Origin: a virus
Lineage: Duplodnaviria; Caudoviricetes
Virus record (IMG/VR): IMGVR_UViG_3300016643_000249
Span: 7,358 to 71,357 of that record
Direction: 5' to 3' (one strand)
Length of the DNA stretch: 64,000 nt
The notes beneath the pieces are model-generated. The model saw nothing but the letters and a program-made list of their open reading frames with translations. It made no database searches and was not told where the DNA came from. Positions 2,317 through 25,916 of the stretch are shown here, piece by piece. The translations under genes and the position numbers were made by a program. The first letter of the stretch is position 1, and every line of letters starts with the position of its first letter.

Positions 2317-2485
2317 TGATTTACTTGCAACACGGAGGCAGTATCGTGCTGTCTATACAAATTGGCCAGTATCGGTAATTGAGGCACATATGATACTGAT
2401 TGATTGTAAAGTGGCAAAAATGCACCCGGATGAAATGATTGAGGCACGGCAATTAATGGATGAAAGGTTGCCTCTTTGGCGGTAG
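2309..2485 (+). CDS. hypothetical protein
   Basis: ORF, ATG 2309. Confidence 0.55.
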   Translation: MTDDLLATRRQYRAVYTNWPVSVIEAHMILIDCKVAKMHPDEMIEARQLMDERLPLWR

Positions 2486-2490
2486 GTTTG

Positions 2491-2499
2491 TGTTATAAT
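2491..2499 (+). promoter_or_regulatory. extended -10 promoter (TGnTATAAT)
   Basis: TGTTATAAT upstream of lipoprotein gene. Confidence 0.55.
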
Positions 2500-2526
2500 G
2501 TTATTTCTTTATTATGGAGTTGTGAA

Positions 2527-3057
2527 ATGAAAAAATTGATTGTTGTAATTGCGGCAGTAATGCTCTCGGCGTGTTCTACCTTCTCACCGAAAAAAGATGA
2601 GCCCAAGGTCAATACTGATTTTATGGGCGGGAATATCAAAGTGTCCTATAGTTTGACCGGCGAGTTTCAATCGCTAACAAGTAGCGGTGTCGCCAAAGTC
2701 ACTAGCAACCTGCCCTCGGCCGTTGATGAGGCATATTTGGTCGCCACACTTCAGGCTCGGAAGCAAATCGTTGAGTTTATGAAAGTTGAAGTGGAGAACA
2801 GTAACTTTATTCGTGCGGTGGCTGAATCTCTCCAAGAGGGTGTCAATACAAACGGTTCGCCTGATAACAAAGTGACCTCAAAGATTGCGACTGAGCTGCA
2901 AGACAACATTAAGCAGCAATCAAAGGCAATTCTGACCGGCACTTATGTATCGGACAAATCATATGATGCCTCTACTCGGTCAGTCAAAGTGGTCATTAAA
3001 ACAGGTGTCAAAGATAACGAAGTAGCAAAACAGGTCTCTCGCATGATGGGTAACTGA
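2527..3057 (+). CDS. lipoprotein (LPP20-like)
   Basis: Signal II with lipobox LSAC; GGAG RBS. Confidence 0.7.
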   Translation: MKKLIVVIAAVMLSACSTFSPKKDEPKVNTDFMGGNIKVSYSLTGEFQSLTSSGVAKVTSNLPSAVDEAYLVATLQARKQIVEFMKVEVENSNFIRAVAESLQEGVNTNGSPDNKVTSKIATELQDNIKQQSKAILTGTYVSDKSYDASTRSVKVVIKTGVKDNEVAKQVSRMMGN

Positions 3058-3058
3058 T

Positions 3059-4033
3059 ATGAAAAAACTAATTGCATTGGTCTGCTTTATGGCAACCAAT
3101 GCGTTAGCTGCGCCGCTCACCTTCACGGCCATGGACATGGTTTCGTTGATTATACAAGGTGTGCGGTTTTCTTTTTCTGATATCGTACCAAAAGAAATTG
3201 TAATCAATGCTTCAGGTACAGGTAAAACAAAAGAAGAAGCAGTCAATAACGCCTTGGTAGTTGCTGTTCAAAAAGGTATCGGTGTATTGGTCGTAACTGA
3301 TGATACGGTCGCCAACGGAAAAGTAACTCGTAACCTTGCGGCTCAGTATTCATCTGGTGTGGTCAATTCGTATGGTGTAATTCGTTGCAATTCTTTAGGA
3401 ACTATTCAATGTGAAATACAAGCAAAAGTGTCACCATGGAAATTTCAGCGTCAATTACTTGCCAATACCAATGCAGTCAAAGTGAACGGCGATGACCTCC
3501 ATGCACAACACATGACCATGCAGTATGCCCTGGTTCAGCGAGTAAAACTAACACAGTATTATTTCTCACAATTGCAACATTCTGGTTTGGAAGTAAAAGT
3601 CAAAAGCATTAAGATGATGCCTACGATGAGTGATACTGCTACGCTTTTGTTGGACTATGAAGTGCGTATGAACCCTGAGTTTAAGAAGAACTTTATATCA
3701 TTTTTAGAAAAACTGGAGAAAGACACAAATGGAAGAACTGAAGAAAATTACAGAACCTATATTCAATGGGGTCCAACTGGCTTATATGAAAATCGGGTAT
3801 TCATTAATGCTTACAATGCGAATTTTAGGTCTATGATGAATTCATACCTTTCGGCACCAATCTCTGTTGGCATTAAAGAGCTGGGTGTATGTGAGAGGTT
3901 TGATGTACCAGGTGGAAATGTAATGACCGTTGATTGGTATGGTTTCAATAAACAACGGACAATTGAGGTGCCTGCAAATGCCTTGAAAAAGTTAAATAAC
4001 ATAACACTTACGGTAGGATGTAATGAAACTTAG
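3059..4033 (+). CDS. secreted/periplasmic protein
   Basis: Signal peptide MKKLIALVCFMATNALA; G.T.EEAVNNAL motif as in LPP20-associated proteins. Confidence 0.7.
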   Translation: MKKLIALVCFMATNALAAPLTFTAMDMVSLIIQGVRFSFSDIVPKEIVINASGTGKTKEEAVNNALVVAVQKGIGVLVVTDDTVANGKVTRNLAAQYSSGVVNSYGVIRCNSLGTIQCEIQAKVSPWKFQRQLLANTNAVKVNGDDLHAQHMTMQYALVQRVKLTQYYFSQLQHSGLEVKVKSIKMMPTMSDTATLLLDYEVRMNPEFKKNFISFLEKLEKDTNGRTEENYRTYIQWGPTGLYENRVFINAYNANFRSMMNSYLSAPISVGIKELGVCERFDVPGGNVMTVDWYGFNKQRTIEVPANALKKLNNITLTVGCNET

Positions 4034-4241
4034 TTGTAAAATTAAATGGGTTGCTACGGTCGTCACACTTGCTGGTGCCATAGCAACCGCTTTGATGTAT
4101 GACCCACTTAACATTTACTTGTTAAACCTTGGTGCTTTCTTGTTTTTGATTTGGGGTTTTATGATTAAAGACAAAGCAATGATTACAGTAAATGCTGGTC
4201 TTTTGTTTATCTACATTATTGGAATTATGGTGAGAATATGA
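4023..4241 (+). CDS. small membrane protein
   Basis: Three hydrophobic segments. Confidence 0.65.
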   Translation: MKLSCKIKWVATVVTLAGAIATALMYDPLNIYLLNLGAFLFLIWGFMIKDKAMITVNAGLLFIYIIGIMVRI

Positions 4242-4468
4242 ATAGCGTTTTTGTATTAATGATTATCACAGCAAATGGTGTTGTTGAAGCACCAAATGCT
4301 TTTAAATCACTAGCAGATTGTCAAGCTGTTGTTCAGCGTGTTCAAAGAGAAACTTATTGTGTTGAAAAGAAACCGGTTGATGTTCAAAAGGAAATGAATA
4401 CTTTTTTAGCATTGTTTAAGTCAATGCAGAGGCAGATGGAAAATGATTTCGCTAAAGATACAAAATAA
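4238..4468 (+). CDS. hypothetical protein
   Basis: ATGA overlap; N-terminal hydrophobic stretch, two Cys. Confidence 0.65.
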   Translation: MNSVFVLMIITANGVVEAPNAFKSLADCQAVVQRVQRETYCVEKKPVDVQKEMNTFLALFKSMQRQMENDFAKDTK

Positions 4469-4601
4469 AAAACCTCGCAATTTCGTAGCGAAGGATTTGT
4501 TCAGTCCTAAATATAAGCTTCGTGTAGTAAAAAGCAAGAAGAAATACAATAGGCAGTTGGACAAATCCTCACTACGAAAGGAAGTTTATGCAGCAGCCTG
4601 A
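4443..4601 (+). CDS. ArfA-like (alternative ribosome rescue factor A) basic 52-aa protein ending in YAAA
   Basis: MISLKIQNKKPRNFVAKDLFSPKYKLRVVKSKKKYNRQLDKSSLRKEVYAAA matches the ArfA pattern N..L..P.(F/Y)..RV.K.KK..Y.R but lacks GKGS; not in ORF track. Confidence 0.6.
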   Translation: MISLKIQNKKPRNFVAKDLFSPKYKLRVVKSKKKYNRQLDKSSLRKEVYAAA

Positions 4602-4992
4602 AGATAAAAAGTCACATGAATTTGATGGCATCTATTTTTTACCTTACGAAGATGAAAAAGAAGAAGGGCTTTTAATATCATATTTTGATTTTAAGAATGA
4701 AATGGCAGACGGAACACCAATTGAAGGAACTGCCATAGGACCAAAATATCATATTGCCTTTTTCAAACAAGGTGAAGATGGAATGCCGGTATTTGATGAA
4801 ACATTTGAGGCAATTCTTGGTGACCCTGGCAAATACATTCAGAACCTTACCGGTGCCGGAGTGTATGGTTGTGTGGTAAAAAAGACAAACAAATCACAAA
4901 AATGGTTTGAAGATTACCTCAATCGCACATTAAATCATATTACAATGAAGAAGATGGTCGGTTGTTTGAAGTCAATTTTAGAAACTAAATGA
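4588..4992 (+). CDS. hypothetical protein
   Basis: AAGGA RBS, 134 aa ORF. Confidence 0.75.
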   Translation: MQQPEDKKSHEFDGIYFLPYEDEKEEGLLISYFDFKNEMADGTPIEGTAIGPKYHIAFFKQGEDGMPVFDETFEAILGDPGKYIQNLTGAGVYGCVVKKTNKSQKWFEDYLNRTLNHITMKKMVGCLKSILETK

Positions 4993-5008
4993 TGAAAGTG
5001 AGTATATT

Positions 5009-5689
5009 ATGCCTAATTGGTGCAACAATACATTTGAACTGGTAGCTCCGAAAGAAAAGATTCGTGAGTTTGAAACTTTTCTAAACGAAAAAAATGGTAA
5101 AGATTGGTTTGATTTCTTTGCTCCATGTCCACAAGAACTTAAAGATGTTGGTGATGTATCTGTTCATCACACCGATGAGCAATTGCTAGAAAAATATGGA
5201 TACTCTGATTGGTATTCGTTTGGTCTTGGTGAATGGGGTTGTAAATGGAACTGTGATGCAAACGATTGGACAGTAAGTGAGTATGATGATGAAAACCTAA
5301 GCATCAATTTTTGGTTTGATTCGCCGTGGGGACCACCAGAAAATTTGTATCAAAACATTAGTAATGGCAATTTTGGCGAAGATTTGAATGTGTTTGCTGA
5401 ATGGCATGAAGAAGGAATGTGTTTCGTTGGTCGCTTTCAGTATGGTGATAGTGAAAATTATGAATATTCTGACCTTGATTCGCTTGATGAAATCCCGGAA
5501 GACCTGTTAGACAACTGGAATATCCGTGAAATGCTTGAAGAGCGTGCAGAATGGGACGAAGAAGAAGAATTGGAAGAGATTGCTGAAGAATTTGATTCGC
5601 TTTCCGATGATTCCAAGCAAAAAGTTTTAGATGAGTTGAAAGAAGAACTAGCAAAAAGTGATGAAACACCTAAAAAGTGGCCAAATTAA
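5009..5689 (+). CDS. DUF1281/YubB ferredoxin-like domain protein
   Basis: MPNWC.N start, WG.KW, F.F.SPWGPP motifs; acidic tail. Confidence 0.75.
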   Translation: MPNWCNNTFELVAPKEKIREFETFLNEKNGKDWFDFFAPCPQELKDVGDVSVHHTDEQLLEKYGYSDWYSFGLGEWGCKWNCDANDWTVSEYDDENLSINFWFDSPWGPPENLYQNISNGNFGEDLNVFAEWHEEGMCFVGRFQYGDSENYEYSDLDSLDEIPEDLLDNWNIREMLEERAEWDEEEELEEIAEEFDSLSDDSKQKVLDELKEELAKSDETPKKWPN

Positions 5690-5704
5690 TTGAAGGAGTT
5701 GATA

Positions 5705-5980
5705 ATGGCAAGTGAAATTGATACAAAAGAAGGTCGTGAGTGGTTAAAAGGTCTGCTTCGTGAGCGTGAAGTGACAATTTTCTTTACAAAAAAAGACGGA
5801 ACTGAGAGAGAAATGCTCTGCACTCTTTCGGAAAATAAAATTCCGTCTGAAAAAACGCCAAAAAACAGCGGAAAGTCAAAATCTGATGATGCACTTGCTG
5901 TTTTTGATGTGAAAAAAAGTGATTGGCGCAGTTTCCGCTGGGATTCTGTGAAAAAAGTTGAGTTTTCTATTGGAGAATGA
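5705..5980 (+). CDS. WYL_2/SH3-like phage protein
   Basis: VTIFFTKKDGTEREMLCTL ... AVFDV....WRSFRWDSV. Confidence 0.75.
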   Translation: MASEIDTKEGREWLKGLLREREVTIFFTKKDGTEREMLCTLSENKIPSEKTPKNSGKSKSDDALAVFDVKKSDWRSFRWDSVKKVEFSIGE

Positions 5981-5984
5981 AAAA

Positions 5985-6293
5985 ATGAGTGAAAAAAAGC
6001 GTTTTGCAGTTGAATCTTTGTCAACTTTTGCTGAAGTTCATATAGTTTATGCTGAAAATGAAGAAGAAGCAAAAAGAATTGCTGAAAATTCTGACTACAA
6101 TATGTCAAAATGGCTTGGCCAACAAATAATTCGTGTTCGTGATTGCGGAAATAAGCAAATTGAACGCTATTGCAAAGAAGATGAGTATTTTTTCACAGGC
6201 GCTGCACAAATTAACAAAGACGGTTATCTTGTTTACACAGACCTTGACGGGGAAATTGTAAATGAAGCAATGCCAAAAGAATTTTTAGGATAA
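5985..6293 (+). CDS. hypothetical protein
   Basis: GGAG RBS, ATG 5985. Confidence 0.7.
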   Translation: MSEKKRFAVESLSTFAEVHIVYAENEEEAKRIAENSDYNMSKWLGQQIIRVRDCGNKQIERYCKEDEYFFTGAAQINKDGYLVYTDLDGEIVNEAMPKEFLG

Positions 6294-6847: not shown

Positions 6848-6924
6848 CGGAGTTTAGCGCAGCCTGGTAGCGCATCTGCTTTGGGAGCAGAGGGTCGCAG
6901 GTTCAAATCCTGCAACTCCGACCA
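6848..6924 (+). tRNA. tRNA-Pro(UGG)
   Basis: Canonical cloverleaf, TCTGC-TT TGG GA-GCAGA, TTCAAAT, CCA. Confidence 0.95.
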
Positions 6925-6928
6925 ATCT

Positions 6929-7013
6929 GCGAAAGTGGTGGAACTGGTATACACACAGCACTTAAAATGCTGCGCCTTAGGGATTGAGGGTTCAAATCCC
7001 TCCTTTCGCACCA
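6929..7013 (+). tRNA. tRNA-Leu(UAA)
   Basis: CAGCA-CT TAA AA-TGCTG, long variable arm, CCA. Confidence 0.95.
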
Positions 7014-7015
7014 AA

Positions 7016-7090
7016 CTGACCGTGGTGAAATGGATATCACAGTAGCCTTCTAAGCTTCTATTCCGGGTTCAATTCCTGGCGGTCGGACCA
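7016..7090 (+). tRNA. tRNA-Arg(UCU)
   Basis: CTGACCG/CGGTCGG acceptor, CT TCT AA loop, TTCAATT, CCA. Confidence 0.92.
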
Positions 7091-7093
7091 AAT

Positions 7094-7168
7094 GGGCGAG
7101 TAGCTTAATGGTAAAGCAGGCGACTCATAATCGCTTGAGTGTGGGTTCAATTCCTACCTCGCCCACCA
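7094..7168 (+). tRNA. tRNA-Ile2(CAU) (lysidine type; Met not excluded)
   Basis: GGCGA-CT CAT AA-TCGCT anticodon arm as in E. coli ileX; CCA. Confidence 0.9.
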
Positions 7169-10293: not shown

Positions 10294-10751
10294 TAAGAGA
10301 GATGTTTAGTCCAGAAAAATATACTACAGAAGAATTAAATGCTCGCTTAAAATTCTTCATTGGTATCGTTTTAGGTTTGACACTATTTGGTATCGTATTT
10401 GTGGTTTTGTATTCATTGATTTTTGTTACACAACCAATGAATGGTATGAGCCCTGTAGACAATAAGTTTTTTGAGTTAATTATTCCAATTGCAACCTTTC
10501 TAACTGGTACTTTGTCTGGTATCATGTTGGCTGGTGACGATAAGGATTTAAGAGCAAAAGCAATTGATGCGGCATCCAAATCAGCACCGCCGCCATCATC
10601 AACACCTCCGGCTCCAATGGCACCAAGACCATTTACACCTTCTGCACCATCTTTTTCTGAACCAACTCCTTTTGCCGCAGCTGCACCGGCACCAGTAGCA
10701 GGATTCGGCGGAAAGTTGGCGCCACCAGCTGCATTTCAACCGGAGATATGA
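10290..10751 (+). CDS. two-TM membrane protein with Pro/Ala-rich tail
   Basis: Two hydrophobic helices, PPPSSTPPAP tail. Confidence 0.75.
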   Translation: MIREMFSPEKYTTEELNARLKFFIGIVLGLTLFGIVFVVLYSLIFVTQPMNGMSPVDNKFFELIIPIATFLTGTLSGIMLAGDDKDLRAKAIDAASKSAPPPSSTPPAPMAPRPFTPSAPSFSEPTPFAAAAPAPVAGFGGKLAPPAAFQPEI

Positions 10752-10831
10752 TGCCTTGGATGATTGATATGTGGGTAGCATTGTTTTTGGATATGTGGTT
10801 TATGCCATATAGAATAATTGCCCAAAAATAA
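10748..10831 (+). CDS. 27-aa Met/Trp-rich hydrophobic peptide
   Basis: MMPWMIDMWVALFLDMWFMPYRIIAQK, GGAG RBS, ATGA overlap. Confidence 0.45.
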   Translation: MMPWMIDMWVALFLDMWFMPYRIIAQK

Positions 10832-10841
10832 ATGATTATTG

Positions 10842-10900
10842 CCTGCCTGTTGTTTCGGTACAACAGGCAGGTTGACATAGATACTACATTATGTTAGGAT
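10842..10900 (+). promoter_or_regulatory. inverted repeat plus sigma70 promoter
   Basis: CCTGCCTGTTG-N8-CAACAGGCAGG (10842-71), TTGACA 10872-77, 17 nt, TAGGAT 10895-900. Confidence 0.75.
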
Positions 10901-10927
10901 GTGGAATCTAGTGAAAAATGGAGTTTT

Positions 10928-24730: not shown

Positions 24731-25407
24731 TGAAATCTTTTAATCATGTAAAACTAAGTGAATTGGACTTTGAGTTAGAATCCGAAACAACAGAATCGGG
24801 TAGGACTTATAAAACACCGGGAGGAAAGTCCTACCCATCCATCACAACCGTATTATCCAATTACAACAAAAAAGCAATCTACGAATGGCGTCAAAGAGTT
24901 GGTGAAGATGAAGCCAATCGCATTTCACGAGCCGCTTCTGGTCGTGGCACAAAGCTTCATAACGCTGTTGAGAAATATCTTTTAAACGAAATGACTGACT
25001 TGAAATATAAGTCAATGATGCCTGACACTAAAGAGTTATTTCTCAAAGTGAAGCCGTTCTTAGATAATCACATTGGCGACATATATGGCATTGAACAACC
25101 GTTGTATAGTGACAGATTGCATATTGCTGGTCGGTGCGATTGTATTGCACAATGGGAAGGCGAGTTATCAATTGTTGACTGGAAAACATCATCAAAAGTA
25201 AAAGAAAAAAGTTACATACAAAATTACTTTATGCAATGTGCGGCATATGCTGAAATGTTTGAAGAAAGAACTGGCAAACCAATCAAACAAATTGTGGTTG
25301 CCATTGCGGTAGAAGATTCTGATATGCCTTTAATTTTTATTGAAAACAAATCGGACTATCTTTTGCCTCTCCAAGAATACATTTTAAGATATAATAGTCC
25401 GATATAA
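24730..25407 (+). CDS. PD-(D/E)XK exonuclease (Cas4/RecB-like)
   Basis: YPSITTVL, RGT.LH, AGRCD, IVDWKTS, Q.AAYA.M. Confidence 0.88.
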   Translation: MKSFNHVKLSELDFELESETTESGRTYKTPGGKSYPSITTVLSNYNKKAIYEWRQRVGEDEANRISRAASGRGTKLHNAVEKYLLNEMTDLKYKSMMPDTKELFLKVKPFLDNHIGDIYGIEQPLYSDRLHIAGRCDCIAQWEGELSIVDWKTSSKVKEKSYIQNYFMQCAAYAEMFEERTGKPIKQIVVAIAVEDSDMPLIFIENKSDYLLPLQEYILRYNSPI

Positions 25408-25410
25408 ATA
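25403..25410 (+). promoter_or_regulatory. T4-type late promoter of tmRNA gene
   Basis: TATAAATA directly upstream of the acceptor piece. Confidence 0.75.
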
Positions 25411-25411
25411 T

Positions 25412-25736
25412 TGAATTCGTTGAAGATTGTTGAACGATGCGTTGGACGCCGGGGCAGTACCGGCCAGGTCCACCAAAAGCACATTTAAGGCCGCAGCGCC
25501 CACGATAATTTGCTGTAGTGTGCTTTTGATGGGCCTGACATAGTTTAGACAGCGTAGCAATTAGACAATTGGAGAATCGCCAAAGCTAAAGGCGTTAGGG
25601 TTGTGACAACACGGCCGAAGAAGCAGATAGTAACCGCAAACGATGAAAAGTTCGCATTAGCAGCCTAAACGCTGCTTAGGGTTTCGGTGGGTTTTGGCAC
25701 CAAGGGTGCCTTCCTCGTAACAGAAAAACTCCACCA
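25412..25736 (+). ncRNA. ssrA: circularly permuted (two-piece) tmRNA; tag ANDEKFALAA
   Basis: T arm GCCGG-GGCAGTA-CCGGC + CAGGTCC-A-CCA (to 25475); intervening segment; 5' end GGGCCTG at 25531 (G3.U70); tag ORF 25636-25668; outer ends approximate. Confidence 0.92.
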
Positions 25737-25757
25737 ATTCTTAATTAAGGAGATATT

Positions 25758-25916
25758 ATGAAATCGGTAGCACTCATCGCAGCATCGTTGTTCGCAGTAA
25801 CCGCTTTTGCACAAGCACCAGCGAAAAAAGAAGAGCCCAAGAAAGAAGCACCAAAAGCTGAAGTGAAAAAAGAAGCACCAAAAGCCGAAGCTAAGAAAGA
25901 CGAGAAAAAGAAGTAA
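25758..25916 (+). CDS. 52-aa secreted K/E/A/P-rich peptide
   Basis: AAGGAG RBS; signal MKSVALIAASLFAVTAFA then KKEAPKAE repeats. Confidence 0.8.
   Translation: MKSVALIAASLFAVTAFAQAPAKKEEPKKEAPKAEVKKEAPKAEAKKDEKKK

Follow-up and report, generated by a model that had tools for sequence, protein, structure and literature searches.

A selected long-range RNA helix at the overlapping junction of a small, remotely ArfA-like phage gene and its neighbour

What does a long RNA duplex do within a phage gene of only 52 codons, when one of its arms ends at the ribosome-binding site of the next gene? We address this question for a locus in a 71-kb IMG/VR virus record, estimated to be 44% complete and derived from a large phage, of which a stretch of 64,000 nucleotides (the window) was analysed. 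An initial annotation of the window had described the duplex within an "ArfA-like" ORF and had drawn a parallel with Escherichia coli arfA: a nick in the 3' arm would give a non-stop message that retains the peptide core and lacks a C-terminal "YAAA" degron. It carried two caveats, that a cut in the 5' arm would destroy the core and that the duplex might instead control the overlapping ORF at 4588, and it proposed that the matter be judged by RNA folding and by the conservation and synonymous-site covariation of the pairing in homologues. In E. coli, RNase III cuts a hairpin in the coding region of arfA, which places the resulting non-stop mRNA under tmRNA control, and cutting or terminating at this hairpin leaves a message for an active peptide of approximately 55 residues (PMC8012679). 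Here, we report that the phage duplex is real, that synonymous sites encode it, that several lineages have conserved or rebuilt it, and that it is sited at this gene junction. We then weigh what it may do there.

The small ORF occupies positions 4443 to 4601 of the + strand, on which all features of the junction lie, and terminates at a stop codon at 4599-4601; its last 14 nt overlap the downstream gene (4588-4992). The 5' arm of the helix (4481-4504) covers codons 13-21 of the small ORF (N F V A K D L F S) and the 3' arm (4557-4579) covers codons 39-46 (L D K S S L R K), as located from the sequence, from the MFE and centroid folds, and from a table of the pairs across relatives. Within these arms TTTCGTAGCGAAGGATTTGT (4481-4500) pairs with ACAAATCCTCACTACGAAA (4561-4579) in runs of 8 + 2 + 8, giving 18 Watson-Crick pairs that are interrupted by a C4489/A4571 mismatch and a bulged A4492, precisely the duplex that had first been described, letter for letter. 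The G-U extension that had been claimed on its inner side consists of four further pairs, U4501-G4560, C4502-G4559, A4503-U4558 and G4504-U4557, two of which are G-U. The helix of the window's clade thus totals 22 near-continuous pairs with one mismatch and one bulge. It encloses a segment of 52 nt (4505-4556) that codes for the conserved peptide core, PKYKLRVVKSKKKYNRQ, and in which RNAfold predicts two small inner stems (4506-4509 with 4550-4553, and 4518-4525 with 4534-4541). The last base of the 3' arm is also the first base of the downstream Shine-Dalgarno (SD) sequence, AGGAAG (4579-4584), 8 nt before the ATG at 4588-4590, in agreement with the observation in the initial annotation that this arm adjoins the ribosome-binding site. 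A candidate outward extension is predicted by duplexfold, in which AAACCUCGC (4470-4480, the K-P-R codons) can pair with GGAAGUUU, a segment running from the SD through the base before the AUG.

When positions 4470-4600 were folded with RNAfold, the helix appeared in the MFE structure and in the centroid alike, at -39.0 kcal/mol. Dinucleotide shuffles of the same segment (n = 200) averaged -22.5 +/- 3.1 kcal/mol, so that the native sequence has a z of -5.36 and was equalled by 0 of 200 shuffles. The energy was then compared with that of synonymous recodings in which the peptide and the SD/overlap region were held fixed and only synonymous sites were altered. Recodings resampled by codon usage averaged -18.3 (native z -6.0) and those made by permuting synonymous codons -22.0 (native z -4.5), the native fold being 17-21 kcal/mol better than these recodings. 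Because 0 of 1000 recodings by either procedure reached the native energy, the helix is written into the choice of codons and is no by-product of the peptide. A GC-corrected scan of both strands of the whole window ranked the helix region among its most structured segments, although not as the top one (residual z of approximately -2.7, narrowly missing the 25 most extreme among 8516 windows), and structure scans revealed no repeated family of such helices at other gene junctions of the window, where the helix is single. Since both strands of the helix region fold equally well, and the G-U and A-C cells are approximately equal, the strand of the RNA was taken solely from gene direction.

Relatives of the locus provide evidence that the pairing itself has been maintained. 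In the close clade, which comprises 13 distinct sequences, the inner 9-12 pairs are kept in all members and the whole structure is significant in most of them (z of -3.8 to -5.7). The most diverged relative that can still be aligned, L019, contains four double changes that preserve pairing (UA>CG, CG>UA, UA>CG and CG>UA), and two of these four lie at synonymous sites on both sides, as where GAT>GAC accompanies AAA>AAG. The covariation score, a signal that comes largely from this one diverged relative, was 0.141, against 0.092 +/- 0.010 in shuffles; 0 of 500 shuffles scored as high, and the value also lay above all slid controls. The folding and covariation checks proposed at the outset came out in favour of the helix. 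In a sub-clade consisting of L001, L018, L027 and L029 the outer helix has been swapped for another, in which the N-F-L codons, AACUUCCU, form a perfect duplex with the SD of the downstream gene, AGGAAGUU.

Beyond the close clade, seven loci (L064, L068, L003, L049, L066, L130 and L116) each have excess structure of their own relative to synonymous permutation, with z values of -2.2 to -5.8 and 0 to 9 of 400 permutations reaching the native energy. Duplexes were traced in L064, L068, L066/L063, L130 and L116; their arm sequences differ and their layout is alike. In every case the KPRNxxAKDL codons supply the 5' arm, and the variable tail supplies the 3' arm, which either stops 0-12 nt short of the downstream AUG or extends into it. 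At least five further lineages of the gene pair have in this way rebuilt a helix independently, with other letters. The helices of these other lineages are shorter, at 8-15 continuous pairs, and interrupted by loops. A test of cognate 5'/3' duplexes was significant in 35% of 60 unique loci carrying the same downstream gene as the window, versus 7% of 27 other loci. Folding across the family gave a mean z of -1.24 for 57 unique viral loci versus -0.87 for control windows, which is no difference, and the helix is therefore no family-wide trait. Conservation of the pairing, on which the initial annotation would have its proposal stand or fall, holds for the closest relatives and fails in the approximately two thirds of lineages that are without a helix.

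The gene that contains the helix belongs to a large family. On its own the 52-residue protein has a weak match to DUF7230 in Pfam and a match to a PHROG of unknown function, and it has no match to PF03889 (ArfA) at E <= 1; a six-frame scan of the whole record likewise found no PF03889 match at E <= 10, and a search of the small ORF against NCBIfam gave no match. The sole PDB sequence match of the single peptide or of a narrow alignment was a polyketide synthase, which we rejected as spurious. Seven near relatives were found. A family profile retrieved 757 cluster representatives (50% identity clusters) at E <= 0.001, at least 473 loci of the family were confirmed in IMG/VR, and the core of the family reads KPRNxxAKDLRTPKYRxRVVxSKKxYxRK. 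Among 94 members, 28 match DUF7230 and two match Pfam ArfA. When the family profile was searched against the PDB, its six best matches were all chains of E. coli ArfA (E of approximately 0.1), in an alignment that covers the functional core from end to end, apart from a 3-residue gap at KGKGS. An hhalign comparison of the family with an ArfA profile, which was shallow and enterobacterial, gave an E of 1.6e-4 and a probability of 50%; the narrow clade alignment was not significant against ArfA (probability 1.5%). Ala18 of ArfA is required for the activation of RF2, and in the hhalign alignment it stands opposite the Lys of the family's AKDL. We consider "ArfA-like" a fair label for what these profile comparisons suggest, a remote resemblance with no demonstrated membership. 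The label thus survives at the level of the family, and the window's own protein falls outside Pfam ArfA. True ArfA-domain genes have been annotated in phages before, for example gp30 of pelagiphage HTVC027P (PMC12753301).

The downstream gene encodes a protein of 134 amino acids that is conserved in more than 50 uncultured phage contigs, with invariant residues that include D13, G14, H55, W106 and the motif FDxxFEAI. Searches of Pfam, PHROG and Atlas returned no match and assigned it no function. Its structural model (pLDDT 83) is a beta sheet with a long C-terminal helix and has no fold match, the best Foldseek hit having an E of 0.2 and a TM of 0.17 and the best VIA-align hit a Z of 4.0. 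Of 57 loci fetched with this protein, 54 have the small ORF directly upstream; one of the three exceptions is truncated, and two (L032 and L033) have a different upstream gene. Viewed from the small ORF, the next gene encodes the 134-aa protein at 36 of 80 viral loci and elsewhere other products, for example a DNA ligase, a DUF1281_C protein or small unknown proteins. At 79 of these 80 loci the small ORF extends 8-44 nt beyond the next start with a constant frame relation, the downstream start being unassignable at the 80th, and the same overlap is found in 33 of 33 distinct loci tabulated for the 134-aa gene family. At small-ORF junctions the overlap is always 3n+2 and never the usual 1 or 4 nt, whatever the downstream gene.

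This overlap accounts for the tail that had been read as a degron. The SD and ATG of the downstream gene are part of a junction conserved in all relatives, and the letters that encode the EVYAA(A) tail, AAGGAAGTTTATGCAGC(AGC)CTGA, are that SD, its spacer, the ATG and the first codons (M Q (Q) P E) read out of frame; over the SD and ATG, the frame of the small ORF reads K-E-V-Y-A, followed by A (A) and the stop. Members of the family widely end in KE(L/V)xY[GAVDE], because the SD encodes K-E and TAT-Gnn encodes Tyr followed by G, A, V, D or E; distant homologues end differently. In L032 and L033 an unrelated upstream gene replaces the small ORF, yet the junction letters ...AAAGTTTATGCAGCCTGA persist. 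These two loci constitute a natural knock-out of the small ORF and could be used as a comparison. The replacement gene in L032 (600-730) and L033 ends in ...PPRYRVD*, and the start region of the 134-aa homologue is unchanged. Read as K-E-x-x-Y-[GAVDE], the SD-spacer-ATG junction has the look of a unit that is conserved and portable. To take the YAAA tail for an ssrA-like degron is attractive and probably misleading: the tail is the start region of the next gene in another frame and persists where there is no small ORF.

The two genes lie in a run of + strand genes (2476-6293) whose stops and starts overlap and which are separated by no convincing promoters or terminators. Their neighbours include a DUF6552 membrane-like protein (4023-4241) and a DUF1281_C protein with an Api92-like ferredoxin-like domain (5009-5689); in other phages the DUF1281_C gene immediately follows the small ORF. 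Prediction of promoters and terminators found none between the small ORF and gene 4588, and no convincing late or sigma-70 promoter or terminator was present in or beside the helix. A scan of 3500-5500 against Rfam gave no match at E <= 1. Elsewhere in the window, the segment ranked most structured by the GC-corrected scan is intergenic (10745-10925, + strand; MFE -57.2, z -4.9) and contains a perfect 13-bp GC-rich hairpin (approximately 10841-10872), followed directly by TTGACA, upstream of a gene that starts at 10901. Four tRNA genes are located at 6848-7168, and in a megablast search against GenBank phages the tRNAs alone matched. ARAGORN identified a permuted, two-piece tmRNA at 25383-25759 with the tag ANDEKFALAA, which we take to resemble the tmRNA tags of Betaproteobacteria and which may hint at the host. 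Domains of RNase III, SmpB and RF-1 were not found in the 71-kb record, a result that is uninformative since the record is approximately 44% of the genome. Near-identical DNA is present in freshwater, aquatic and groundwater metagenomes of approximately 10 studies, 19 DNA runs from these holding at least half of the sampled words of the stretch. One RNA run, a small metatranscriptome of assembled contigs, touches a small share of the stretch, and one RNA contig begins at 4537, which is meaningless by itself. The public runs are uninformative on RNA ends or strand because all are contigs. Variant tables from the DNA runs were set aside as evidence, since they omit changes close to the ends of contigs.

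Since the helix ends at the ribosome-binding site of an overlapping gene, we infer that it affects translation, and its most likely role is to tie the translation of gene 4588 to that of the small ORF. One arm lies inside a translated upstream ORF and the other at a downstream initiation region, and the same layout recurs in independent lineages. In RNA that is not being translated, the helix would lock positions -31 to -9 of the initiation site of gene 4588, and in some relatives the SD or AUG as well, and free 30S subunits would load poorly on the locked region. A ribosome translating the small ORF would melt the 5' arm approximately 75 nt before reaching the junction, which would open the site to a new 30S subunit or to a ribosome that terminates 11 nt beyond the ATG and then re-initiates. 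Synthesis of the 134-aa protein would accordingly require that of the small peptide and scale with it. When the 5' arm was blocked in silico, P(unpaired) rose from 0.06 to 0.49 for the 3' arm and from 0.20-0.34 to 0.42-0.44 for the -20 to +13 region. Folds place the SD or AUG inside the helix in L062 and L130, and also in L003; the SD and AUG of the window itself lie outside the main helix, and the accessibility of its SD, approximately 0.35, was unchanged by the block. In a test of SD masking over 67 unique loci, the region from -14 to +3 was no more paired than after synonymous permutation, with a mean difference of -0.02 in the 134-aa set (p 0.24). Moreover, that the 3' arm lies so near the SD may reflect the anatomy of the ORF, because the tail is the only part of it that is free to evolve complementarity. 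Also counted against coupling are the 22 pairs, which exceed what gating needs, and the large share of lineages that are helix-free. Because the simple SD-masking version is unsupported and this anatomical constraint applies, we hold the coupling or gating of gene 4588 by the long-range helix only tentatively, at somewhat under an even chance.

Known systems offer analogies for such a role. In phage MS2, the Min Jou interaction pairs a segment of the coat gene with the region just upstream of the replicase start. As there, a segment of a translated upstream ORF pairs over a distance with sequence just 5' of the ribosome-binding site of the next gene, and by analogy upstream translation would be expected to open the pairing and the function would be coupling. 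Unlike MS2, the present case concerns a DNA phage, an upstream ORF of 52 codons and genes that overlap by 14 nt; the span is 54 nt rather than hundreds, and the SD is not reliably paired. Hairpins at start sites in T4 (e, soc, I-TevI, 49, early transcripts) are similar in that a helix at the initiation region could confine translation to a single RNA class or condition. In T4, however, relief comes from a late promoter inside the structure, and inspection of the region between the helix arms, which is fixed by conserved PKY codons, revealed no late-promoter match.

A nuclease could use the same duplex in another way, with RNase III, or some other nuclease specific for double-stranded RNA, separating the upstream message from that of gene 4588 and thereby switching off the small ORF or determining where the downstream message begins and how stable it is. 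RNase III requires a substrate of roughly two helical turns, which the approximately 22 near-continuous pairs of the window's clade would provide, and this fit keeps processing a live rival. The resemblance to the intercistronic RNase III sites of T7 extends to a polycistronic phage message and to an irregular helix of approximately 20 bp, with mismatch or bulge, just before the ribosome-binding site of a gene; the mismatch and bulge recall the interruptions that make some T7 sites single-cut. Processing would also account for a helix longer than start-site gating requires, and the negative SD-masking test fits a role that is independent of SD pairing. The T7 sites, however, are intergenic and recur at many junctions, whereas the helix of the window is inside a coding region and has no counterpart at the window's other junctions; the short, loop-broken helices of other lineages would be poor substrates, and the record, covering approximately 44% of the genome, contains no RNase III gene. 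We therefore regard processing as unlikely, if a serious contender. The helix might instead act on the small ORF itself, slowing ribosomes or shielding the message and so setting the dose of a basic, ribosome-binding peptide, with no role at the downstream start. That both arms lie inside the small ORF and enclose the part coding for its core would suit such an action, as would the outcome of the SD-masking test. Structures within coding regions are melted by ribosomes, however, and seldom determine output, and significant helices are enriched where the 134-aa gene lies downstream (35% versus 7%), which makes this reading improbable. That two parts of a short gene are complementary by chance or hitch-hiking, with no function at all, could be argued from the many lineages that lack a helix and from the weight of L019 in the covariation. 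Against it stand the failure of all 1000 synonymous recodings to reach the native energy, the four compensatory pairs, and the independent rebuilding of helices from different sequences in at least five lineages, and we consider it highly improbable.

The arfA-style proposal goes further than processing. A cut confined to the 3' arm would leave a non-stop message that carries the ArfA-like core without the YAAA tail, whose product would be tagged by tmRNA, that of the phage included; cutting there would also set free the message of the next gene, and trans-translation would decide whether the factor accumulates. If true, this nuclease-operated switch would amount to the bacterial tmRNA/ArfA backup circuit in a form encoded by a virus. 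As in E. coli arfA, a stable duplex precedes the stop codon in the ORF of an ArfA-like peptide, here with its 3' arm between core and stop, and a tmRNA is encoded in the same genome; the family is remotely ArfA-like by the PDB and hhalign comparisons and by its two Pfam ArfA members among 94. The anatomy differs, however. The E. coli hairpin is a compact stem of approximately 20 bp with a 5-nt loop, situated wholly after the core, whereas the loop here is 52 nt long and contains the core. Because the 5' arm is formed by codons 13-21 and the loop by the core, an ordinary two-strand cut by RNase III would remove the core and a staggered double cut would destroy the message, as the caveat in the initial annotation had foreseen. 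The tail that follows the helix is the start region of the next gene rather than a destabilising hydrophobic extension; it persists where the small ORF is absent and is missing from distant homologues. The small ORF has its own stop codon, and at 52 residues its product is already the length of active truncated ArfA (PMC8012679). Most members of the family are without structure, and the homology of the window's ORF to ArfA is remote only, its protein falling below Pfam ArfA. On these grounds the main inference of the initial annotation is unsupported and an arfA-style non-stop switch is unlikely; in the form of a cut limited to the 3' arm, with or without release of the downstream message, it would be a very long shot. 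The comparative data favour its second caveat over this reading, namely that the duplex may control the ORF at 4588.

In the tentative coupling reading, mutation of one arm together with compensatory mutations, placed in a reporter, would provide a clear and inexpensive handle on the ratio of the products of the two genes. The helix would be a further example of an mRNA device of known type, found within an interesting family of phage peptides, and that large and remotely ArfA-like family is a bigger question than the helix itself. In widespread uncultured freshwater phages, the junction of a tiny gene resembling a ribosome factor and its overlapping neighbour carries a selected RNA helix.
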